Source: Bispira polyomma
Taxonomy: Eukaryota
Direction of reading: 5' to 3'
DNA length: 64,000 bases
Assembly: GCA_965649765.1 (NCBI GenBank)
Contig: OZ287756.1
Location: 42,842,001 to 42,906,000 of the forward strand
Numbering within the stretch: the first letter of the stretch is position 1; every line of letters begins with the position of its first letter. Positions 26,172-64,000 of this stretch are shown here, piece after piece. Made by a program: the position numbers and the translations under genes. Below the pieces are notes generated by a model that was not told where the DNA came from, did not search any database, and saw only the letters and a list, made by a program, of their open reading frames with translations.

Positions 26172-27128
26172 GTTCCCATAGATTACATCAACTGCTGCTC
26201 AGGTTCGAGCCTATTCTGCTTTTCAGCACAGAACTAGGACGCTGTACAGTCGTTCACTGTCACACTTTCTTAAGTTTTGTGTCAGACATTCTGTCCCTCA
26301 CCCACACTACACTCTTAGTGTCATTCTTGCATACATTGAGCATCTTGTGCAACTGCACTTGTCCTATCTTACCATTCAAAACAATCTTTCGGCACTTAAC
26401 CATTATTTTAGGCGTTTTGGCTTGAACCTGGATGTATTCAACAATGTGAAGGTAACAATGTTACTTAGGTCTATTAATAATAATATTCCTAGGAATATAA
26501 AGGTAAAAGACATTTTTGGGGTGGAAGACCTTAAAAAGATTTGTGAACAGTGTGACCATTGGGAAGTGTATATAAATCAGTGTTTCTTATAGCCTTTTTT
26601 GGTTTGTTTCGCATTAGCAATTTATTGTCGCATTCTGTATATATGTATGATAATGAGCGCTTGTTGCTCAGGCGTGATGTTCAGTTCCAGGACCCAGGAT
26701 TAGTTATCAGTGTTAAATGGACTAAAACCATGCAAAGTCGTCAAACCAATGTTCAGTTACAGCTGCCACGTTTGGCTGGTTCCCCTTTGTGCCCTGTTCA
26801 GGCCATTTCTGACATGTATAGTCAGTTTCCAGCCCCTTTGGCTACTCCATTGTTTGTAGTACCTGGTTCTTCTGGTTATCAACCATTAACAGATGTTAAA
26901 GTTCGACAGGTTTTAAAGCATATTTTGGCCATTCTTGGCCTCAACAGTTCCACCCTAGGGTTCCATGCGTTCAGAAGGTCAGGGGCTTCTCTCCTGTTCC
27001 AACATAATTTCCCTCTTCAGTGCCTACAAGCTCATGGCACTTTGACTTTAGACTCTGTCTGGTCCTATCTTCAGGCTGGGGAAAATCTCACTCTCATTCC
27101 ACACACTTTTCAGTCTATTCTTTTATAA
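26172..27128 (+). pseudogene. Element A tyrosine recombinase, frameshifted near 26560
   Basis: AFFGLFRISNL (catalytic R), KWTKT, LCPV, FHAFRRSGAS (HxxR), AHG and VWSYL (catalytic Y). Confidence 0.92.
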
Positions 27129-27887
27129 AAAAAAAAAAAAAATCTTCACACATAAATCCTTGTTTGGCTTGGGGTGGTTAGTATTATTCTTTAGTATTCA
27201 CTAAATAATTTCACCAACTTTTTATATGACGTGTCAAGATCATACAATGTCATACACATGTGGTGAACTGAACGTATGGAACTAATAAATGGAATATATT
27301 ACCAAAAAGTATGTTGTTCTCATTTATGGATTAAACTATCAAGGTCACTGTTCCTTTCAAGGTCACTGTAGTAGGTTTGCGATGACGCACGAAAGTAGCA
27401 AACTTGTTCAGTGATGAATGGTCAGGGACGTTGCACCGAGTTACTGTAGTAAAGCACGTGCCTCGTCGCAGTTCGACGAGAGGCACCAACTGGGTAGCAC
27501 GTATAAGTTTAACTCTATAATTAGTCTTTTAATCTTTTTATTAAGTGTCCAGAAATACAGCCGAGTGTCCATTTCATACCAAGCATGATCGTAAGAGGCT
27601 CTTGTTATACTATGGGAACCTTAGTCGTGGTCAGTGACTGGTTACTATAACTTTGAACACAACGCGAAGTCAGATCAGTTGAACATTTAGATGCAGCTGT
27701 TTATATTTTAAACTTGAGGCTATACTGAAGGTCGCCACAGAAGCAACAGAAAATATTTTAAGCATGCAAATAAACATTTTTACATAGATTTTAGTCAACT
27801 GTTTTAATTTTTATACATTTTCATTGTGTTTTATTATATGTTGGCTACTTGCAAGTGTATATTTGTGTACCACATTGTGTGTTAATT

Positions 27888-29135
27888 ATGGGGAAAACAA
27901 CAAAGAAGATGCTGCTCGCTTCACAATTAAAGAAATCAACACGTCAGAACAAGGGTTCAACAACAAGGACGGGGGACAGGGGTCAACAGGTAAATACATT
28001 ATCTCGCAACTTACAGAGTATTCTGACAGAAGCCGTTGGTAATTACAACAGTACTTCTATGATTGACTCTGATAACGTCCCCGTTCCAGCCAGTATCACA
28101 GCTAGTACACCGCCTCGTTCTAGAGCACCCCTGTCAGGAGAATCCACATCAGATGAAATGCTGAACATATTAAGACGTCTAGAGTCGTCTAATGCCGCTT
28201 TGTCGCAAAGGTTGGACAAAGTCAAGTCGGGAGCGCTGAACCAGCACATTCCAGTGCAATCTCACGGCCCATCGGCCACACAGACCACGAGTATTGCTAC
28301 AAATCCACTCCCGGTTCCCAACTTCACAACGTTTCGACAGCAGCAGCCAGCCGTGGCTCACGTCAACATGGCAACACAGCCAAACGCTGCTCAGACCAAC
28401 CCACAAGAATTTGCCCGTGATGGAATCGTGCCAAACCTTGATGCCTTGCGAACCATGCCGTCAGTACAGGCGGCTGTCACTCAGCAGTTGGCTCAGTATG
28501 AGATGGCAGCCATTAGAGAGTTGACACAAGGTAAGCGACTTAAATCTGGAAGATTCAATAGCACTGACATTACTACGACCGATGCCAAACGCAGATGGCC
28601 CAACGAGGGCTGGGTCGGCGGGGCCACACGCAAACGTCCAGTCTATGATGACTTATCACTGCCCCAATGGGCTGCAGGTCAACTCTCAAACACATTACTC
28701 ATCACCGACATCAACGAGATGCACGGGATCATGCAGCAACTAGTCTATGCACTGAGAAACGCAGCCTCGCTTCCGTGGCCGGTCGTTCGCACCGCGTGGG
28801 CATTGAATATGCAGGAGGTAGAGGAGAGCAGACTGACCTGGGCTGATAACACGCAGTGGGCCATTAACAGGCTCAATGCATCCCAGCTAGCTATGGCAAA
28901 TGGTAATTGGGGGGGTAATGGAAACGTCTCTAGTAACGGTACCACAGGGGAGGGGAAATCAACAATATGTAAGCACTTCAATAGTGGAAAATGCACATAC
29001 AAAGCAGATCATGGGGTCTATAAGCATAACTGTTGGCATTGTGCCAAGGTGTTGGGGAAAGAGTCTAGCCCCCCAGAATTTAAGTGCTTTAAGGCCAATG
29101 CCAGTAAAATTGAAAACAATACCAGTACAAAATAG
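27888..29135 (+). CDS. Element B gag-like ORF1, open reading frame with Cys/His zinc fingers
   Basis: Uninterrupted ORF (track 27849-29135; first ATG at 27888). Motifs KSGR, WPNE, YDDLSLPQW and CKHFNSGKC...H...HNCWHC. Confidence 0.88.
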   Translation: MGKTTKKMLLASQLKKSTRQNKGSTTRTGDRGQQVNTLSRNLQSILTEAVGNYNSTSMIDSDNVPVPASITASTPPRSRAPLSGESTSDEMLNILRRLESSNAALSQRLDKVKSGALNQHIPVQSHGPSATQTTSIATNPLPVPNFTTFRQQQPAVAHVNMATQPNAAQTNPQEFARDGIVPNLDALRTMPSVQAAVTQQLAQYEMAAIRELTQGKRLKSGRFNSTDITTTDAKRRWPNEGWVGGATRKRPVYDDLSLPQWAAGQLSNTLLITDINEMHGIMQQLVYALRNAASLPWPVVRTAWALNMQEVEESRLTWADNTQWAINRLNASQLAMANGNWGGNGNVSSNGTTGEGKSTICKHFNSGKCTYKADHGVYKHNCWHCAKVLGKESSPPEFKCFKANASKIENNTSTK

Positions 29136-29262
29136 GTAGTTTATCGACAACTAGGGACAGAGACAAAGCAATGTAAAATTGAGAGCAGTGATAGTATTTT
29201 AATTGTTAATGTAGATAGTGATGATAATGAGAACATTATGAACAAAAATCATAATGAGCTAA

Positions 29263-31850
29263 ATGAGTACATTTTGGAAAATGTTAAAATTTGTGAAAAT
29301 ATTAAAAACTACAAATAATATGCCTTCTATTGTTATAGAATCAGAAATTTTAGGTGGTGAAATGACCAATACCAAAGGGTTATCTGTTTCCTCCTGGGTG
29401 AGAGATGAAGGGCAGGAACTTGCAGAGAATGCACTTCACGAGCTCCAGCATAGCAAAATAACGGTAACAGAAAGCGCATACAATCCAGAAATTCATAGAG
29501 GGCATGTTGTTATAGGCAGCACTGACCAAGCACTGAATCAGGGTAAGGTTGGGAATTTAAAAGAAGTTGAAATGGACAAAACTGTCACAATTTCTGAGAC
29601 AAATTGGGCGTATGTGGATTTTACAACTGGAAATAATTGTCCTATTGTACACATAGCTGATCATAATGGCCTGAGTCAAGGTTTTTACCGTTTAGAAATA
29701 GATTTGGTCACTGCTGCCTCTCTGTTTTATAAAGTTGAATTTAAACCTAATGGTTTATTGCAAATAATGAACTCTTATCAAGTGTTGGTTAAAGACCTGA
29801 ATGTAACAAGTAATTGTCACAACAAAATTAAAATCAGATCTCAAAGAGACATAAATCAGGCAGCAATGGTTGCTGACAATTATAAAGCAGATGTAAAAAG
29901 TTTACAACGACATGGTAAAAACCATACTGAAATGATGGAACAAGTAATTGACTCGTTGATATATAACTGTGAGCATGAAATAAATAATAATAATGTAAAC
30001 AGTGAAGATAACAGAAGTCTGGATCACCAGCACTTGGCAGGGGCAGAAGCCCATTTCAATGCAGGTAAAGAAAATTGTGATAAAATACACACTCTAAGGG
30101 ACTTTAATGACAAAGATAAGGAAATAGGTTTTCTAGCTTTAGCTCCTACTAAGTACACTTTTTGTGGCCCTGACAGATGTGGGGAAAAAGTTGACACTAT
30201 CCCAAAAATCTTATAAATGGCTAAAATAATTAAAGTCACAGGGGTACCCAATTTTAAACAGGCAAGAATCCCTGTTAGTTCAGATTTACACATTAAGGCA
30301 TGGGAGGACATGCTAAGGGAATATCCAGATGAACTCCTTATACAATACATAAAGTTTGGTTTCCCTCTGTGTCTGGAAGATCCAGACAGTGTCAGAAATA
30401 AAGACATAAAAAATCACTTCTCAGCTCTTCAATTTCCCTATAAGGTTGGAAAATATCTAAGGAAAGAACAGCAATGGGGTGCTATGCCAGGTCCAAGTAA
30501 GAAAATTGACACAATTTACTACAACTGCTCTCCTCTGCTTACCAGGCACAAAGATGGTAACAAGCGTCGTGTAATACTACATTTGTCACACCCATATGAG
30601 ACATCTCTCAATGACAACGTGAATAGGGACAAATTTGACAACATAGCATTCGCATTAAAATTTCCCACCATTGATAACATCACAGATGCAATTCGCAAAA
30701 CGGAAGATGTAATGTTATTCAAAATTGACGTAGACCGCGTGTTTCGCAACTTAAGAGTTAACCTGTAGACGCAGTCAAACTTGGCATATTTTGGAACAAT
30801 GAATATTACATAGACCCTGTGATTGCATTCGGGTGGGTCCACGGCAGCGCGGCCTTTCAACGCTGCACTGACGCAATTACGTCACGCATGCGTAAACAAG
30901 GATATAATGTATTTGGGTACATAGACGATTACGTGGGCGTAATTTGTAAAAAGGATGCAGAACAGGGTTTTGAAAGTTTACACTCACTACTCACAAAACT
31001 TGGTTTACCCATGAATGCAGACAAACTAACTGCCCCATATAGGAAGCTCACATGCTTAGGAATTGATTTTGACCTAGACGTAGGTACTATAAGTATTCAG
31101 CCTGAAAAACTCAAAGAAGTGTATGACTCATGCGCGGACGCCATTGACAAGAAATACATAGGCAAGACAAAATTTCAATCACTTCTTGGAAAGTTACTCT
31201 ATGCTCATAAATGTGTAATTCCGGCTCGTGCATTTATCAATAGATTATTAGCAGCCTTTAGAAATAACCATGACAGAAAGCGATTTAAGGTTACACAAGA
31301 TATGAGGAATGACTTACAATGGTTTATTTCTTTCATGAAAAAATTCAATGGAATCACTTTTATTAACCACAAAAATATTCCTTTTGCAAATGAACTGCAT
31401 CTGGACACCTGTCTTACAGGCTTTGAAGCAATCTATAATGATGAAGTATATGCCACCCCGTTTCATAACTTATTCGACCAAGATCTCACGATTGTACATC
31501 TCGAAATGTTGAATATAATAGTAGCACTACGTGTATGGGCCAGAGCATGGGAGCATCAAGCAGTTTGTATCAATTGTGATAACATGGCAGTAGTTCTAGT
31601 TGTTGGTTCTCAGAAAACCAAAGACCCTTTCTTAGCTTAAAGTGTAAGGAACATTTGGCTCATTACAACCACATATGATATTAAGTTAGAAATTAAACAT
31701 ATACCAGGGAAGGCAAATGTAATTGCTGATCATTTATCAAGAATTTACTCTAGCAAACCTCCTAATGAATTGGTAATGCACTCATTACTGAGTAATTTCA
31801 GGTGGAAACCTGTACCAATTGACTACTTCAATTTAAGTTTATCCATATAA
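29263..31850 (+). pseudogene. Element B pol (N-terminal extension, RT, RNase H) with stops at 30214 and 31638 and a frameshift near 30765
   Basis: IKFGFP, RRVILHLS, FKIDVDRVFRNL, FGWVHGS and YIDD. RNase H motifs LDTCLTG, HLEMLN, CDNMAVV and HIPGKANVIADHLSR. Confidence 0.92.
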
Positions 31851-31856
31851 TTGTAG

Positions 31857-32833
31857 GCTCTACAGTCATCAGTCAAACACTGATGTCTTCAGCTTGGTTA
31901 AGGATGAACTCATCACTCAGGCCTAAGACTACTGCAGCATACAAAGGAAAATTCAGAACATTTCTCAGCTTTCTTCAAGTGGTGGGCATTCAACAGATTA
32001 CTGTGCATGCTGTCATTGCTTTTATTGAATATTTAATTCAGAACAACCTGTCTCCAGGGGCTATTAGTAATTACATGGCTGCAATCAAGTTCACAGCTAA
32101 CAAATTTAACTGGGACTTGACACCCTTTACACATAATTCCGTAGCTCTGTTGTTAAGGAGCTTGACACATAAGTCAGCATTTAAACATAAACCCAAAGGC
32201 ATTTTCACAATAGAGCATCTAGTGGAGATCTCAAAAGCATGCAATATACTAGAGGACCCAATATTATTCAGGGCAGTATTTATGCTGGCGTTCTTTGCAT
32301 TCTTGAGGGTCTCAAACATTGCTCCTCAGTCCAGAGCTATTTTTGACACAACTAGACATTTCTTAAGGCAAGACATTATCTTTGTTGAGCCTGGAGCACA
32401 TATCATATTAAAGTGGGCAAAAAACTTACAGAACCGCACAGATACCCATATCATACAGATTCCAACTCTAAAAAACAAGCATGTTTGCCCAGTCACAGCT
32501 TTGAAGGTACTATTACAATCAAGACCAAACTCGCCAGCACATCCTTTGTTTGCAGCAAATGTTAGTCCTTTTCACACAATAGTAGATTCACGCATCAGGG
32601 TAGCACTGCAAACAGTACTAGAACATATAGGCATACAATATGCATCACATGGCTTTCATACATTTAGAAGGTCTGGGGCCACCTTCGCATTTAATCACAA
32701 TGTTTCATTACAAAATATAATGGCCCATGGCCTATGGAGGTCTTCCTCGGTATGGACATACCTACAGAAAACTTCACAAGCTGCGTCTATAGTACCACTT
32801 ACATTTGCTGCAGCTATCCCTTCCTCCCTTTAG
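31857..32833 (+). CDS. Element B tyrosine recombinase, intact ORF (ATG at 31883, frame open from a putative splice acceptor at 31856)
   Basis: AFFAFLRVSNI, KWAKN, CPV, FHTFRRSGAT, HGLWRS and VWTYL give the complete R-K-HxxR-H/W-Y signature. Confidence 0.93.
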
Positions 32834-33413
32834 TTTGGCTTAGGGCTTAAATTTTTTTTAAAAATGTCCAAATTTTAAGCATTATATTTTAATATTTTAT
32901 GTAACATTGTAAATATTACTAACATGTACAAAAATAAAACCTCAAACCTAATCTTTTACTACCTGTCTTTCATCAAACATCACACTTAATATATCTAGGC
33001 CTCACCTTCTGCAGAAATAGCTTTAGAAAATCTGACCTTGCATTGTGTGACCTTACTTTTCAAACATGGGGACTGTAACTAGTAGGACACTTTAGGACAC
33101 TAATGATTCAGTCCTCGTACCAAAGTTTATACCTCTACCTTAAATATGTGAACTACACATAACTATGCTTAACAAATTTGTCTCTCCATCCACAAACTGA
33201 CCAATCAGATTATTCGACTTGTAGCTTAATTTCCGCTTTTTGAAGGGATTCCATATTGAAATTTGCTAATGACATGAAGGGCGACAGAAAATATTTTAAG
33301 CATCCCACCACCTCCCCTTTACCACAGCTAGGGATAAGATTTTTCCATGGCATTAGATCAGAATGGACTTAAGTTGTAAGGTTATAATCCCAGTTAGATC
33401 TGGGTAGGTCGAA

Positions 33414-33543: not shown

Positions 33544-34091
33544 TTGGTTCCAACCTGAACAAGTACTGGTAAATGAGGAAATTTACAAAAATTTATACAA
33601 GTTCAACCTTGTGGTATCAGGTTTCAAGAATGTCTAAGGAACAAATGACACATTTGTAACTAGAATTGTTTTTGACTATATTCAGGAAAACGTATGCTAG
33701 AGGTAGACATTAACAAATGACATTAGACTACATATGTGATTTGTGGTTTATGACAAAGTTAAGGTGTAAAAATACTTGGCAGGGAACGTTAAAAATGTAG
33801 ATTTATGGGTCGCTTATGTCGACCCTCATAGAGTGTGAGAGTTGGGTGAAGTACATCACTCACATCAGAAAACGTTATCAAATGTAATGATTTATGGCAA
33901 GCTAGAGCTGGTTAAAAGTTGAAACAGCGTTAAATGCAGGCACAAGTATGTGGTTCTTTTAAAACTTACAATTTGTATGAATTATTTTACTGGTTAAAGT
34001 TTCTTTTAGTGTATGGGATTTATATCGTGTTTAATGGTGTATCTGACTCTTATGTAGTACAATCATTTATATTATTTATATTATATTATGT

Positions 34092-37022
34092 AATCTAACA
34101 GCCAAAGTTGTGCCAGTTTATGTGGACTCCTCTCGTATCTGTGCTGTAAAAGCTATTTTCAATGACACTGCTATACTTTTAATTAATGTGTACATGCCAT
34201 ATAACTCCAATATGGACAGTTATGTTGATGAAGTTAATAATATATTATCAATGGTGTCCTCTATTTGCAAAACTGCATCAGCAAATTATATAATCCTAGG
34301 TGGTGATTTTAATGCTGATCTAAACAAATCTAACCATAGAGTTACAAAAGTTATTGGAGAATTTGTGTCCAATGAATCTTTAGAATGTTGCATTAAATGC
34401 AGTTTAAGTAAAATACATTTCACCTATATGAGCACAAGTAATGAGGGTGTGTCAATAATTGATCACTTTTTTGTTTCTCGTAACTTGTATGATGACATTT
34501 TGACATATGATGTCCTTCATGATGGTGACAACTTGTCTGATCACTCTGTGGTATCTTTGAGTATAATGTGTACTAAAGTGGAATATGCAACTGTAATTGT
34601 AAATGCGAACAATAAATCCATTTGTTGGGAAAAGGCCACTGATGTGGACATTGCTAATTATCAGTCTTTGATTGATCTTACTTTGAGTAAAATTAATATC
34701 CCATGGGATGCATTGAAATGTAATGACTACTTCTGTGATATACATAAAGAGCATATAAATAATTTTCATGACGCCATTATAAATGCTCATGCAGATGCTG
34801 CTAATATGTGTATTCCTACCACCAATACAGTTAATAAGAAAGGTAATATTCCTGGTTGGAATGAATTTGTATGTTCAAAAAAGAAATCAGCCATCTTCTG
34901 GCATAATATGTGGAGAAGTAATGGTTCTCCACATAATGGTATCATTGCTGACATAAGACGGAGGACACGAGCTCAATATCATTACTCTATTCAGTTTGCT
35001 AAGAACAATCAGAATGGTATATGTGCAAAGGCAATGGCTGATGCAATATCATGTAACAACTCCAGAAAATTCTGGACTGAAATGAAAAAGAAATTAAGTA
35101 ACAAAAACTCCAGTATTCTGAATGTTGACAATTTAACTGAAAAACAGAATATTTGTGATTTATTTGGAGATAAATATAAGACCTTATATACTTCTGTACC
35201 TTATAATGTTGAAGAGATGAAAACATTATGTAACAGTATTGATAATAAAATTGTTGGGAATTGTATTGAAGGCAAGTGTTATAATAAGCATGTAATTACT
35301 GTAAATGATGTAATTGATAGTGTTGCTAAATTGAAGAATAACAAAGGTGATGGAATACATAAGGCATTTTCTTGTAACTTAATAAATGTTCCCCACTTGT
35401 CTTCTGTATATATTTCAATATTGTTCTCATGTATGTCACGTCATGGTGTTATACCAGGTGATATGACCCTTGGTACTATAACTCCAATAATTAAGAACAA
35501 ACGTAAATCTTGTAATGAATCTAACAACTTTAGAGCAATAACCTTGAGTAGCATATTGGGTAAAATGTTTGATAATGTAATACTTTCTCAAAACAGTAAT
35601 GTTCTAAACACATGTGATTTACAATTTGGTTTTAAAAGTAAACATTCTACAGTTATGTGTACTTTTGTTCTAAAAGAAATTGTGCAGTATTATGGTAACA
35701 ATAATAGTAATGTACATTGCCTTCTACTTGATGCTACACAAGCATTTGATCGTTTACAATATGTTAAACTTTTCAATGTCCTCTTTAAGAGAGGGGTATG
35801 TCCTGTGACAGCTAGATTTCTAATTATGTTATACACTCAACAAAACTTACAAGTCAAGTGGGAAAACTGTTATTCATCTGAATTTGGTGTTAAAAATGGT
35901 GTGAAACAAGGAGGGGTATTGTCACCTATATTATTTACAGTTTACTTTGATGAGCTTCTTCAAATGTTAATAAAGTCAGGTTATGACTGTTGGATAGGCA
36001 ATACATTCTGTGGAGCATTGGCATATGCAGATGATGTGACAATTTTAGCTCCAACCTTAACATCAACCAAGTTACTGTTACAAATTGTTCATACTTTTGG
36101 TAAAGAATATCATGTAAAGTTCAACCCTAGCAAAACTAAACTTGTGAGATTCGGTTCTTCGAGAAATAATGAGAACAATGAATATGTAATGTTTAACATT
36201 CATAAAATATATTGTGAGACCAATGCAAGCCACCTGGGCAATCTTATTGGGAATAATACAGAAAAAGATAATATTCAGAAAAATATATATGAATTTGTAG
36301 CAAATGTAAATATAATAATGTTTTATTTTCACATGTCTAATACTGAGATAAAATACAAATTGTTAAAAGCATACTGTATGCCATTGTATGGCTGTTGTTT
36401 GTGGGACTTTTCTGGTAATGATGTAAGCAGATTTTATGTAACATGGCGTAAATGTATAAGGAGGTTATTACATATACCCCATAACACACACTGTAGGTTT
36501 TTACCTTATATTGTAAATGACAAAACTGAAGAAATCCAGCTACATAAAAAGGTTTGTTAAATTTTTCAGTGATGCAATGTGTAGTGAGAATAGTTTGATT
36601 AATTTATGTTCCAATTTAGCAAAAAGTGGTAGTTGTTCTGATGTTTGCAACAGTTATGTATTTATTAAACACAAGTATGGCATGCAAAGTGATTACTCTA
36701 ATTATAATGAAAACCTCTGTTGTGAGAATGAAAAGCTTAGTGTTGATGATGTTGTACATATAATATTAAATATTATACAGGACCTATTAAGTCTGAGGGA
36801 GGATGGAAATACTTTTTTAACCCATCAGGAAATAAATGAGATATTAAAATACGTATGTACAGTATGATATAACATGTAGTATTCTTTATTATGTACATAT
36901 TATGTGTTGTTTTTTTTTTGTTTTGTTTTTGTTGTTGTTTTTGTTTGTTCCTATCATGTTTGTATATTATAAAAAAAAAATGTACTTTGAGTACGAATAA
37001 ACTACATGAACTATTATTATTG
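34092..37022 (+). mobile_element. 5'-truncated non-LTR retrotransposon (APE + RT; RTE-group, Proto2/RTEX-like), inserted in the spacer of element B
   Basis: 816-aa ORF with APE motifs (NVYMP, GGDFNAD, IDHF, SDH) and RT motifs (QFGF, DATQAFD, GVKQGGVLSP, YADD). The C-terminus continues after a frameshift to 36867. AATAAA at ~36996 and a short (TAT)n tail. Confidence 0.9.
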
Positions 37023-37131
37023 TGAGGCTAGTCCTGTGTTATTGCTTATGGCTAGACCTATACCTGTTATGATTTAGTACCCTTTAGTAGGGGGCTTAAA
37101 AATTTGTTAAAAATGTCAAAATTTTTTTAAC

Positions 37132-37413
37132 ATTTTGACATTTTTAACAAATTTTTAAGCCCCAAGCCAAACTAAAGGGAGGAAGGGATAGCTGCAGCAA
37201 ATGTAAGTGGTACTATAGACGCAGCTTGTGAAGTTTTCTGTAGGTATGTCCATACCGAGGAAGACCTCCATAGGCCATGGGCCATTATATTTTGTAATGA
37301 AACATTGTGATTAAATGCGAAGGTGGCCCCAGACCTTCTAAATGTATGAAAGCCATGTGATGCATATTGTATGCCTATATGTTATAGTACTGTTTGCAGT
37401 GCTACCCTGATGC
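37132..37413 (-). repeat. Inverted copy of the 3' end of element B's YR gene and the start of B1
   Basis: Reverse complement matches 32592-~32873 almost exactly in the coding part. Confidence 0.93.
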
Positions 37414-40023: not shown

Positions 40024-41053
40024 TTACTTCGATTCAACACAGTGGCAATCCTCTTCTCTGATGTCCTTGTGACCGCCCGACGGATCTAGTCTGTCCATTT
40101 TTATATCACCATAGAGTTGAAGGTCAGTCTGAAACTCATTATTCAAAGCTGTAATGCAGGGCTTTATATGGACACCGTAAAAACATGGTTTTTCACCAAA
40201 GGAAGGTATACTATATCTTGACCTTCCAGACAAAATACCAAGGGCAATCAAATCATCACCATTTTTCTCGTAGATTAAAGCTCCACTGTCTCCTTTCTCT
40301 GCAAATGTTTGCTTAGGCTGTTCAGTTTGTACCAGAAATACAAAACCATCATCTGTCAAAAAATGTGTATTCACTACCAATCCTTTTGTTTCACCCGTCA
40401 CTGCACCTAACTTATATACCGTTTGGCCAATTTTAACCTTTTTCAACGTTAGTTTTTTGTCCAAAGCCCTATCGATTTGGTGCTCCTCCTTAAGATTAGG
40501 CGCAATTGTCATCATTGCTACATCACAGAACATGCGCTTCCTATTAACTTTTTTAGATGATTTCAAACCTGAGCTGCTGGTGGCTAGCAGGATAGTTCTT
40601 CTGGAAACACCAGTATTCTCACTATGTGTTGCCTCTGACAAGATATATCTTTTTGCTATATTTTCTTTATCTTGCTTTAAGTTTAATACATGCTGTGCTG
40701 TAATTCCAAAAATCGTGTGTGATTTTTTTGTATCTTTAGCAAAACATGCAAGACTCCCATAGCCATAATTTTCTAAACATCGTTCTTCAAGAGTATCCAT
40801 GTTTTCATTGTATAGCAATACATCACAAACATTAATGAACTGAATATGTTTTACTTTGTGTCCCCTCTTGATGTCACCCTTCTTTTTGGTTAAAAATTGA
40901 ACAGAGAAATTGTTTTCTTCAATGTCAAAGTCAGATTTTCCATCTTGAAAGTGTTGGATATATTCGGTTGCTTCTTTTTTGAATCCTGGTTTGATGCCCA
41001 TTTTTATTCGCCCTTCATGTTCATAAGTGTAGTTAAACCACTTGGGTTTATCT
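40024..41053 (-). CDS. Terminal coding exon of a host gene encoding a trypsin-fold serine protease (NAL1/Ssy5/alpha-lytic-protease-like)
   Basis: Uninterrupted frame with the triad motifs GITAQHVL (His), FCDVAM (Asp) and AEKGDSGA (Ser), plus VYKLGAVTGETKG. Acceptor tttttctttcag immediately upstream (AG at 41055-41054). Confidence 0.8.
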
Positions 41054-42011
41054 CTGAAAGAAAAACATATTCATAAACAAAACAAACAGAGCAAAATTTG
41101 TATCAAAAGCATCATCCTTGATTATAACTTGATCCCATACTCCTTAAACGTAAACCTTTGATCTATAAATAAATTATTCCTCACAGAAATCCAAACTGAA
41201 ACATATACACCTGATGTGTTTAAATGCAAACTTTAATACAATGGTGTTGTGAAGTATCTAAACTGTTCAGTAAAGTCACAGAGCATTACAATTTCAACTG
41301 TTGCTTTATTTCAATCTCAATTTTGACTCGTAAAGGAATTAAGATATGAAAAATACTTATACAACACAGTACATTTTTAGAGAAAAGGGATGTTAGAAGG
41401 AAGTGAACATGATTGATGTTTAACTTTGTTCTTGATGAGTACAAATAAAATAAGATTGGTTCATTGTATGGTTCATTTTATAGTCATGTAATGCTTTTGC
41501 ACCAGAAAAACAGCATAAATAATTGTACGTTTGGTAAATAGGTGCTTGTCCTTTATTCCAGAAGGCCCTCCATTATTTGGCACAACAAATTACAAGATTT
41601 TATTTTAACAATAATGGTAAAATGTTAAAGAAAACAATAAACAACAAGATTAAACAACAGTTAAAATTTATTTTCTGTATAAAATGCCCTGATCCAGGGA
41701 AGGTCATAGATCAAATTAGGTTAAGTAAAAAAGTTTATGTGCCTAGTGGCATGTTAGTCATAGCAGACTTGAACTAATACTTGAACTAACAATCGGAAGA
41801 ACTGTCACCTGTACTTACAAATACTCAGTTACTGATACTCAATACAAACTCCGACGTTGACAGCATTATAAAACAATTGAAATATTAAGAAATATCACCT
41901 CTGTACATGCACTAATATGAATTTTTGTACCCTCACCTCTCTGGGGGTAAGCTAATTTATATTTTGTGAAAGAGATAAATAATCTGATTGCTTTACAAAC
42001 AAGAAATTTAC

Positions 42012-50899: not shown

Positions 50900-53603
50900 T
50901 CTACAGGCTTATCCCTGAAAACATGGTGGTGTCAATTGGGCCTCATGGCCGTTCACTGTTGCTTCCCTGCGTCTATCGCCCCCAGGATCATGTACCTGTA
51001 ATTTTTTAGAAAATTGATGTCTTTTGTTGGTTTCCTGCCATCCATTAACAGTTCATATCATATCTGTGGTAACTTTAACATCCATGTAACTTTCGTGTGA
51101 TCTAAAACAGTCAGTTAGACAACCAACCCATCTACATGGTCACATTCTGGACCTCATTTTATCTCCTTGTGATCAGGATACTATTGTGGATGTCAAAGTC
51201 TTCAATCTTATATCGGATCATTAGTCAAATGCTCAATTGCTTCTCCCCGACAGGTGGCTCATATTCCTAATACAGTGCATTATAGAAGGTACCACCGTAT
51301 AAACATGTCTGACCTCCGTACTGATCTTGAGTACTTCCTTTATTAAGTCACCTACCAATTCTGTAGCCAAACATTATGAACAATACATACATGACTTGGG
51401 TGATGTACTAGATAAGCATGCACCACTTGTATCCAGAATGTCAAAGAAATATTCTGTGCATTGGCTCTCTGATTCTTACCGACGGGCAAAATCTCTCAGG
51501 CACCAATATGAAAGAATTTGGCGAAGGGCCAAGAATCCATTAAATAGAAGTCGACTACGTCGCCAGATTGCTCAGTGCAATGTACTTATTAACGAGGATA
51601 AGTCGGTGTATTACAGCAAGCTTATCTCTGACAACAGGCACAACTCCAGGAAGCTGTGGCACGAACTGCGCAAGACCCTTAATATGGATACCAATGTGGC
51701 ACTCCCGTCCCATGATTCGGATAAATCACTAGCTGATAAGTTTGCTTCCTTTTTTTCGGACAAAATTAAGAGAATTATAGATTCTTTTGTTGTCTCTGGA
51801 ACTAAAATTGATGTTCATCCTCTTTCTGATCCCCCAGAAATTACTGCCTTTACCAGAGTCTCTGAAGATGATGTTAGTAAAATAATAAGTAACTCGCCTA
51901 CAAAATCCTGCATGTTGGATCCATGGCCAACATCTCTTATTAAAGAATGTAGTGATATATTACTACCATCCATTACAAAGCTTGTAAACTGTTCACTTAC
52001 GGAGGGACATGTACCTGATGGTTTTAAAACAGCTGTGGTTACTCCTCTTATTAAGAAGGCTTCTCTTCCAGTTGATGACTTGAAGAATTATCGCCCTGTA
52101 TCTGGTCTTAGTTTCATATCAAAACTGGTTAAACGCGTGGTTGCCAGGCAACTGTTAGATCACATCTTTGTCTACAACTTAGACAACCCATACCAGTCTG
52201 CGTATAAAACTGGTCATTCGACTGAGACAGCTCTTCTGTCTATAAAAAATGAAGTTCACCTATCTTTGTCAAGAGGGGAACCTACTGCCCTGGTATTGCT
52301 CAAAATCTCTGCTGCCTTTCACACCATTGATCATTCCACGCTTCTCAGTTGTCTTCAGACTTGGTTTGGAGTTAGGGGCTCTGTTCTTAAATGGTTCACT
52401 TCCTACTTAACTGATCGTTATCAGTCGATAAAAATTGGCTCTACTCTGTCCGATCTTTGTAAACTCTTGTTTGGTGTTCCTCAAGGTTCTGTTTTGGGCC
52501 CTCTGTTGTTCTCATTATACACTTCCCCTCTCAGATTGTTTATTGGCAAATACACAGGAATAAAGTTTCATTTTTATGCAGATGATACCCAAATTTATGT
52601 GCACCTATCCCATAAAAACACATCTACTGCCTTTGAACAGTTGAACAGGTGCCTTGATGATGTGAAGGAGTGGATGTCAACTGGCAAACTCAAACTTAAT
52701 CCCGATAAGACTGAGTTCATAATCTTTGGCTCAAAACAACAGAGGGATAAGTTGAAAGCATTGTTCCCAGTTGACATCCTGGGTAACCCTTTCAGTCCAG
52801 CTGATTCTGTCAAGAACCTGGGTGTATGGTTTGACTCTGACTTTTCTTTTTCTAAACACGTTCAGAGTGTCTGCAAAAGCTATTTCATGCAACTCCGTGA
52901 CTTTAGACGTGTCAGACGGTTTCTCACTTATGATGCTTCTATACTTGTGGCCAATGCTTTTGTCAGTAGTAGACTGGATTACTGCAATTCACTTTTCACA
53001 GGAGTCTCTCAAAGTTTAATTTACGCAAATTACAATGCATTCAAAATAGTGCAGCTAGAATTGTGTCAAACACCAGTCGATACACTAGTATAACTCCTGT
53101 TCTGAAGAAATTGCATTGACTCCCTGTTGAACAGCGTTCAGTGTTTAAGACAGCTACACTTGTTTATAAGTTTCTCCACACTGGGTTTCCAAAGTATTTT
53201 GGCCCATATCTTTCCACTTAGAGTAGTTCCTACAACACCCGACGTAGTCAGAGTGGTAGTAATTTCCTTGTTGTTACGAAGTTCCACCCATCTACTCAAA
53301 AGTCAGTTAAACAGTTTGGTCACAGCTTTGCTTTTGATGCTCCATTGTTTGGAATGGTCTCCCTGATGTGATTCGTGCTTCCCCCTCACTAGCCTGTTTT
53401 AGAAAGAAGCTTAAAACCCACTTGTACACTAAAGCATATCCACCTTAGTTTCAATCATCCCCCGGCGCGCTCTATGTTGCTGACCCTTTTTACTGTCCCT
53501 TGATTTTGGTAATTGGATAACTGTCTTTTGTGCTGGTGCGCCTTAGAGTCCCCTTTGTTAAGGGGAGATTAAGCGCAATAAAAGTCTAATTACAATTACA
53601 ATT
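50900..53603 (+). mobile_element. L2/CR1-clade LINE, 5'-truncated (APE remnant, RT ORF 51327-53093, 3' stem-loop and tail)
   Basis: [50 protein letters not shown] and SRLDYCNS. 3' end gcgccttagagtcccct...aggggagattaagcgc followed by a (caatta)n tail. Confidence 0.93.
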
Positions 53604-62134: not shown

Positions 62135-64000
62135 AACAATAGCGCTTAATCTCCCCTTAACGAAGGGGACTCTAAGGCGCAACAGTAATCCAATTTCCAA
62201 TATCAATGGACAGAAAAGGGTCAGCACCACAGAGCCCACCGGGGGATGATTGAGACTAAGGTGGGTATGCTTTGGTGTACAAGTGGGTTTTAAGCTGCTT
62301 TCTAAAACAGGCTAGTGAGGGGAAGCATGAATCACATCAGGAAGAGCATTTATACAATGGAAGAATCAAAAGCAAAGCTGTGACCAAACTGTTGAACCGA
62401 CTTTTGAGTAGATGGGTGGAACTTTGGAATGACAAGGAAATTACTACCACTCTGACTACGTCTGGTATTGTAGCAACTACTGCAAGTGGAAAGATATAGG
62501 GCAAAAAACTTTGGAAACCAAGTGTGAAGAAACTTATGCAGCTATTTTAAACACTGAACACTGTTAAACAGAGAGCCAATGCAATTTCTTACGAACAGGA
62601 GTTATACTTGTGTATCGACTGGTGTTTGACAAAATTCTAGCTGCACTATTTTGAATGCATTGTAATTTACGTAAATTTAACTTTCAGAGACTCCTGAATA
62701 GCGAATTGCAGTAATCCAGTCTACTACTGACAAAAGCATTGGCCACAAGTATTGAAGCATCATAAGTGAGAAACCGCCTGACACGTCTAAAGTCCTGGAG
62801 TTGCACAAAACAACTTTTACAGACACTCTGAACGTGTTTACAGAAAGAAAAGTCAGAGTCAAACCAAACACCCAGGTTCTTGACCGAATCAGCTGGGCTG
62901 AAAGGGCTACCCAGGATGTCAACTGGAAACAATGATTTCAACTTATCCCTCTGTTTTGAGCCAAAGATTATAAACTCAGTCTTGTCGGGATTAAGTTTGA
63001 GTTTGCCAGTTGACATCCACTTTTTCACATCGTCAAGGCACCTGTTCAACTGTTCAAAGGCAGTAGATGTGTTCTAATGGGATAAGTGCACATATATTTG
63101 GGTATCATCTGCATAAAAATGAAACTTAATACCTTCGTATTTGCCGATAACCAATCTGAGAGGGGCAGTGTACAGTGAAAACAACAGAGGACCCAAAACA
63201 GAACCTTGAGGAACACCAAACAGAGTTTACAAAGATAGGACAAAGTAGAGCCAATTTTTAATGACTGATAATGATCAGTTACATAGGAAGTGAACCATTT
63301 AAGGACAGAGCCCCCAACTCCAAAGTCTGAAGACAACTGAGAAGAGTGGAATGATCGATAGTGTCAAAGGCAGCAGAGAGGTCGAGCAATACCAGGGTAG
63401 TAGGTTCACCTCTTGACAATGATAGGTGAACTTCATTTTTTATAGAGAGAAGAGCTGTCTCAGTCGAATGACCTGTTTTATATGCAGACTGGTATGGGTT
63501 GTCTAAGTTGTGGACAAAGATATGATCTAACAGTTGCCTAGCAACCACACGTTCAACCAGTTTTGATATTAAGCTTAGACCAGATACAGGGCGATAATTC
63601 TTTAGGTCATCAACTGGAAGAGAAGCCTTCTTAATAAGAGGAGTAACCACAGCTGTTTTAAAACCATCAGGTATATGTCCCTCAGTAAGTGAGCAGTTTA
63701 CAAGCTCTGTAATGGATGGGAGTAATATATCACCACAGTCTTTAATGAGAGATGTTGGCCATAAATCCAACATGCAGGATTTTGTAGGCGAGTTACTGAT
63801 TATTTTACTGACATCGTCTTCAGAGACTCTGGTAAAGGCAGTAATTTGAGGAGGATCAGAAAGAGGATGAACATCAATTTTAGTTCCAGAAACAACAAAA
63901 GTATCTCTAATTCTCTTAATTTTGTCTGAAAAAAAGGAAGCAAACTTGTCAGCTAGTGGCTCATAAGATTCATGGGACGAGAGTGCTACATTGGTATCCA
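62135..64000 (-). mobile_element. Second copy of the L2/CR1-clade LINE, frameshifted, running off the window end
   Basis: Reverse complement closely matches ~51686-53580, including the 3' stem-loop (gcgcttaatctcccct...ggggactctaaggcgc). Confidence 0.93.

Follow-up and report, generated by a model that had tools for sequence, protein, structure and literature searches.

Phase-matched splice sites in Ngaro-type retrotransposons of Bispira polyomma predict a spliced RNA encoding a Gag-recombinase fusion

The DNA analysed here (the window) is a stretch of 64,000 nucleotides (nt) of Bispira polyomma (assembly GCA_965649765.1, contig OZ287756.1, positions 42,842,001 to 42,906,000, forward strand), and positions are counted from its first letter. 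It carries on the plus strand a dead copy, element B, of a Ngaro-type retrotransposon with a tyrosine recombinase (YR). A gag-like open reading frame (ORF) of 415 amino acids (aa), ORF1 (27888-29135), called Gag by its position, is followed by pol (29136-31850), which comprises a variable N-terminal region, a reverse transcriptase (RT; PF00078, E 4e-8) and an RNase H-like end, and by the YR gene, in which PF02899 (SAM-like) and PF00589 were detected together with the catalytic residues R150, K188, H267, R270, H290 and Y301. The repeats B1 (32843-33075) and A2 (33076-33302) come next. The left part of the 5' repeat A1 lies at 20343-20542, sharing 96% identity with A2 (33077-33279), and repeat comparison placed the remainder at 27740-27765 (end approximate). 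The truncated start of B2 (37091-37125) has been displaced by a long interspersed nuclear element (LINE) inserted in the A2-B2 spacer. A1 and B1 matched A1 and B2, respectively, of the relatives L031 and L032. As pol is interrupted at several places by stops and frameshifts, A1 is split and a LINE occupies the 3' spacer, what follows concerns the family and not transcription of this copy.

A candidate 5' splice site, CAAG/GTAAGC (the slash marks the splice boundary), is located at 28530/28531 in the gag frame (ORF 27795-29135, ATG at 27888), where it splits a Gly codon after the first base, four codons ahead of the KSGR motif. A candidate 3' splice site, ATTGTAG/G in the context ATAATTGTAG/G, is located at 31856/31857, and its first exon base is codon position 2 in the YR frame (ORF 31823-32833). 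Arithmetic on the two frames showed that both sites are phase 1 and thus match. The predicted coding part of exon 1 (27888-28530), common to Gag and to a predicted fusion of the Gag N-terminus with YR (GagN-YR), is open for 214 codons plus 1 nt, and that of exon 2 (31857-32833), which encodes the tyrosine recombinase with its SAM-like domain, is open for 324 codons past the acceptor. The predicted intron of 3326 nt (28531-31856) covers the 3' half of gag and the whole of pol, whose stop codon TAA (31848-31850) lies 6 nt ahead of exon 2. Scored with a generic 5' splice-site matrix, the donor ranked first among the 74 GT sites of the gag ORF. The first-pass annotation, made from these letters alone, had put forward this pair; its positions, its phase in the Gly codon before KSGR, the 6-nt distance from the pol stop and the in-frame, stop-free join were all borne out.

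That annotation had also proposed that the position and phase of the two sites be compared among relatives, and the comparison came out in its favor. One hundred copies in the same genome were collected from the matches to the YR of element B (best 60 of 123) and to that of element A, a second Ngaro-type element in the window (best 40 of 150). Together with the two window elements they gave 102 sequences, 83 of which had an intact YR and were grouped into 17 clusters (F1 to F17) at 82% identity. The cluster representatives were 25-80% identical in YR, or 29-80% without F12, probably an F11-lineage sequence with a frameshift. In a tree from which F12 was left out, the deep lineages of this genome number three or four. 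The predicted intron measured 2881-6934 nt with a median of 3408 nt (86 copies).

The donor was evaluated in a protein alignment of the 17 cluster representatives, built without reference to splice signals. The donor Gly column consisted of GGT followed by A in all 15 aligned representatives, and F14 and F16, which the aligner set outside this column, carry the same GGT-A. Eight other conserved Gly columns of Gag used three to four codons each, GGT-A accounted for 47 of the 259 Gly codons overall, and none of 55 conserved YR columns was restricted to a single codon. The residue after the donor Gly is variable (K, M, T or N), and G at +5 was kept in 15/17. When individual copies were inspected, G/GTA was present in 86 of the 88 copies with a gag anchor, in phase 1 in 78 (including L116, whose anchor was misplaced) and across an apparent local frameshift in eight; two had lost it, and 12 copies had no anchor. 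A further 80 copies retained the donor in frame in 73 cases, the others being two with GGC, one with GGTC and four rearranged. The conserved donor ranked first of all GT sites in 12/17 gag ORFs and first of the phase-1 sites in 14/17.

The acceptor was conserved as well: 93/100 copies have a phase-1 YAG no more than one codon from where YR is projected to start, whereas the mean was 15.7 and the maximum 56 in 81 other in-frame windows serving as controls. By eye, the seven misses comprised a site 30 nt upstream of a duplication (L080), sites preceding a frameshift (L101, L102), point changes (L042, L122) and rearrangements (L120, L124). The base at -5 was T in 17/17 (positions -6, -3, -2 and -1 being fixed by selection), and the AG-free zone upstream of the acceptor extended over 15-77 nt (median 32), whereas 947 control YAGs had a median of 11. 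In most copies the acceptor AG lies 6-37 nt beyond the pol stop, and stops in the YR frame often occur 2-12 codons upstream of it, so that neither protein constrains the acceptor in those families. A candidate branch-point motif about 25 nt upstream of the acceptor doubles as pol coding sequence, and no branch point is claimed here. Judged by these comparisons, the splice-site pair in element B is real and conserved beyond coding need, being canonical and phase-matched as expected of a spliceosomal GT-AG intron.

Relatives elsewhere agreed with this pattern. Nine metagenome contigs encoded relatives of 25-45% identity. Read by eye, a phase-1 YAG marks the start of YR in eight of them, with a candidate in the ninth; G/GTA was located just past the conserved helix in all three contigs containing that part of gag. 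Indirect support came from database YR proteins reaching far enough, among which 61 of 101 N-termini fit the residues expected from readthrough of a T-rich acceptor, compared with 183 of 1417 control windows. Element A (21148-27510), whose YR is about 36% identical to that of element B, possesses the homologous phase-1 donor TTTG/GTATAT (22145-22146, plus strand) and the homologous acceptor ATTGTAG/G (26171-26172, plus strand), phase 1 in intact relatives; the YR of this window copy is frameshifted downstream of the acceptor.

From the sequence we infer both that splicing takes place and that it joins these two sites. Very probably, the spliced RNA encodes GagN-YR, while the unspliced RNA makes Gag and, by readthrough or -1 frameshifting, Gag-Pol. 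The phase-1 donor in mid-gag would be joined to the phase-1 acceptor at the start of the YR gene, giving a recombinase fused to the first ~140-330 Gag residues, and the shared N-terminal exon would supply the YR start codon. The unspliced RNA would serve both as the genome and as the mRNA for Gag, with Gag-Pol arising from it by recoding. The production of YR from a spliced transcript, as first proposed, gains support from the retention of site position and phase across distant families.

The frames of the three genes are consistent with this arrangement. Pol is in frame past a gag TAG-G in F1-F7, F9 and F17 (F8 not shown), as it is behind the gag stop of element B (29133-29136) in intact relatives, and in F10 and F14-F16 it follows A AAA AAC in the -1 frame. 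Gag-Pol is thus predicted to arise by readthrough in the former clade and by -1 frameshifting in the latter, an assignment based on retroviral recoding motifs. The two clades (29133-29136 versus 22744-22750 in the window; L031-L130) differ in apparent gag-pol recoding and have the same splice sites. In the metagenome relatives L132, L134 and L138, gag closes with TGA and pol continues in its frame, which may be a third context for readthrough. The TAG/G at the gag stop was considered as an acceptor and rejected, being phase 0 with A-rich sequence upstream, and no second acceptor by which the same donor could reach pol was conserved ahead of the conserved part of pol (at most 3/12). Most clusters have YR in the -1 frame relative to pol; in F2, F11, F12 and F14 the offset is 0, and in F15 it is +1. 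One recoding event could therefore not account for YR in all of them, whereas the acceptor phase is always 1. The first ATG after the acceptor likewise varies by family from codon 5 to codon 142: it is codon 9 in F1-F5 and F8, including element B (ATG at 31883), codon 5 in F15, codon 98 in F10, at least codon 79 in F6, F7 and most of F9, and between 5 and 101 in the remaining clusters. A start at codon 79-98 would cut away the SAM-like domain. The pattern that the first-pass annotation had envisaged should the idea fail, namely relatives lacking the sites and starting YR at a conserved ATG, was not found, as YR has no conserved ATG.

Several observations weigh against the GagN-YR splice. No junction read or spliced cDNA was found, with no RNA run listed, and the junction was absent among the 15 joints listed of 34, which came from contigs of three runs of unknown kind that covered the element evenly, like DNA, and are uninformative on splicing. 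No GagN-YR fusion occurred among 270 database proteins scanned, nor in a search of longer proteins, a weak negative since the matches look like prokaryotic-style gene calls. No spliced genomic copy was detected, and no match to exon 1 (best 150 of 1649 and 137 of 148) had a frame longer than 536 aa. Among the 80 further copies no credible YR followed exon 1; a weak match (E 0.002) was seen in L217, which has a normal donor. DNA searches across the acceptors of the two window elements returned no match beginning at the acceptor (best 40 of 42 and 40 of 98). Copies within a cluster are not independent, and the genome holds only the few deep lineages mentioned above. The pyrimidine tract is weak (0.60 versus 0.52 in controls), another GT outranks the conserved donor in 5/17 gag ORFs, and element B together with five related clusters has an ATG nine codons into YR. 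Furthermore, coding constraint alone can keep a phase-1 YAG, as in one RNase H column (10/12 pol ORFs), although the YR acceptor differs from that site in that it lies beyond the stop of pol, often immediately behind one in the YR frame.

An improbable alternative is that the acceptor is real and is used with another donor, in a leader or at another phase-1 site in gag, and that the mid-gag donor has a different role, possibly the binding of U1 to suppress premature termination. U1-dependent termination control heads a section of a paper on copia (PMC5580714), and other phase-1 GT sites do outrank the conserved donor in L093, L124 and L110. However, the alignable part of gag contains a single conserved phase-1 donor column, families with no YR ATG ahead of codon 79-98 require an upstream exon that is coding and phase 1, and the acceptor in question has no conserved phase-1 counterpart ahead of the conserved part of pol. 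Translation of YR from its own ATG, through an internal promoter or reinitiation after the pol stop with the splice-like sites being incidental, is still harder to accept: the early ATG in F1-F5, F8 and F15 would permit it, whereas the corresponding position has no ATG in F6, F7, most of F9, F10, F13, F14, F16 and F17, homology starts upstream of the ATG at the acceptor, and the conservation of GGT-A and YAG is left unexplained. A Pol-YR polyprotein made by frameshifting or readthrough at the end of pol, to which the short -1 overlap of pol and YR in most clusters and the gag-pol recoding apparently used by these elements might point, is the least probable, as pol and YR are in frame 0 in F2, F11, F12 and F14 and in +1 in F15, the pol stop is 6-37 nt from the acceptor, F2 and F14 have an in-frame stop two to three codons ahead of YR, and the printed junctions share, by eye, no slippery site.

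If YR is made from the GagN-YR RNA, the content of exon 1 becomes relevant. ORF1 has a basic N-terminus, a predicted long helix (residues 85-113), conserved helices (172-213), a helical domain (~220-340) and a Cys/His-rich C-terminus. Exon 1 measured ~140-330 codons across 36 copies. Its product has an N-terminus of basic or Cys/His type, then a heptad-like helix and a variable linker, and the conserved helix that follows ends at the donor. In a structural model of Gag (mean predicted local distance difference test, pLDDT, 59) the donor maps to a linker of low confidence, directly behind helix 191-213 and ahead of a folded domain. The removal of the Gag zinc fingers and all of pol, as originally proposed, holds for the predicted intron, which takes away still more, namely the one confidently folded domain of Gag (residues ~219-345, 28542-28931; four-helix model, pLDDT 88). 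Fold searches with ORF1 gave no Foldseek match at E<=0.001, the best VIA match of the domain model having Z 4.9 (root-mean-square deviation 4.2, 79 aligned), and the ESM Atlas matches to ORF1 were only unnamed eukaryotic clusters. A self-association model of the exon-1 helices scored 0.01, with the fold uncertain. Speculatively, exon 1 may contain signals for nuclear import or self-association by which YR reaches the Gag complex; targeting of YR to Gag complexes, to particles as the first-pass annotation suggested, or to the nucleus is likewise speculative. Eight exon-1 matches with identical scores, mostly ~29.4 kb apart, were located in G000:C3:15669729-15880207, a segmental array in tandem that contains a fragment of an element.

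The layout of these elements fits the definition of Ngaro within the order DIRS, as given in passages of PMC8547959, PMC13465315 and PMC4157794; the tree holds only the sequences of this analysis and no reference Ngaro elements. As in Ngaro, a gag-like ORF, RT/RNase H and a separate downstream YR were accompanied by split direct repeats, and a tyrosine recombinase stands with the RT in place of a DDE integrase. In relatives the repeats are ordered A1, ORFs, B1, A2, spacer, B2, with A1=A2 and B1=B2 at 97-100% in L031, L045, L048, L062, L065 and L114; they differ from those of Ngaro in that several hundred bases of spacer separate A2 from B2, and in the window copy they are disrupted by insertions. 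No methyltransferase was found among the Pfam matches, and pol stops shortly after the RNase H-like motifs. A PAT-like identity, which combines split direct repeats with a methyltransferase, was rejected for lack of a methyltransferase match, and a DIRS1-like identity was rejected on account of the direct repeats, that same lack and the downstream YR with at most a short overlap. DIRS-1 of Dictyostelium is also a YR retrotransposon with three ORFs, but unlike element B it has inverted repeats with an internal complementary region (ICR), a methyltransferase domain and a YR ORF overlapping RT, according to passages of PMC5633606 and PMC7192593.

Retroviral and gypsy env mRNAs and the spliced pol mRNA of foamy viruses reach a 3' gene by removing a large gag-pol intron. 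The predicted splice resembles them in this respect, and gag-pol readthrough or -1 frameshifting is also retrovirus-like. The difference lies in the exon, which contributes at most a short leader in those viruses and would here contribute 140-330 Gag residues joined to a tyrosine recombinase. The analogy with the subgenomic gag RNA of copia drawn in the first-pass annotation was only partly upheld. For the shGAG RNA of the plant Ty1/copia element EVD, passages of PMC5580714 describe a conserved alternative splice that sets the ratio of structural to catalytic products, with the unspliced RNA as the genome; that spliced RNA is truncated and makes only Gag, not an integrating enzyme, whereas the RNA predicted here would skip pol and yield the integrating enzyme with half of Gag.

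Ngaro elements are found from protists to vertebrates, and their third ORF often has no usable start codon; the splice would answer how it is translated and would explain why the YR frame is free relative to pol. In passages of PMC3783388, fungal Ngaro elements of all groups are described with the YR ORF either in frame with RT-RNase H or frameshifted, a variability that the splice would explain, and Ngaro-type elements are described as having no protease, so that the recombinase cannot be cut from a polyprotein as the integrase of LTR (long terminal repeat) retrotransposons is. The real recombinase in the family of element B would then be ~540 aa and not ~320, which matters for the annotation and biochemistry of Ngaro recombinases, and the predicted junction is precise and can be tested in RNA-seq. 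It is quite possible, though short of probable for the combination as a whole, that GagN-YR splicing is ancestral and order-wide as the route to the Ngaro integrase, from diatoms to animals, that the Gag segment is an assembly tag loading a protease-independent recombinase into the Gag-Pol-cDNA complex, and that host splicing controls integration apart from reverse transcription. Passages of the Ngaro literature did not state the mode of YR expression, and no published description of a Gag-to-YR splice was found in a search that did not include Goodwin and Poulter 2004 or Poulter and Butler 2015; an earlier published mention is conceivable, if rather unlikely.

An insert of ~7.2 kb (20543-27739) splits A1 and contains element A, flanked inside the insert by ~600 and ~230 nt of unassigned sequence, with CGCCACAGAA at both insert ends. 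In the N-terminal part of pol (L031-L130), the gag stop is separated from the conserved pre-RT region by several hundred codons that are open but poorly conserved, and the window copies gave no Pfam match there. The LINE-like endonuclease-RT ORF (34047-36867) sits in the A2-B2 spacer, and at the truncation of B2 lie 287 nt (37127-37413) that repeat, inverted and at 98%, the 3' end of YR and the start of B1. A second LINE-like RT ORF and its inverted copy of 87-93% identity, ~9-11 kb away, occupy 51303-53490 and 62214-64000. A 348-aa ORF on the minus strand (40024-41070) showed a weak Peptidase_S64 match (E 7e-5, below the cut-off), and a tandem repeat with a 50-nt unit occupies 18903-19501.

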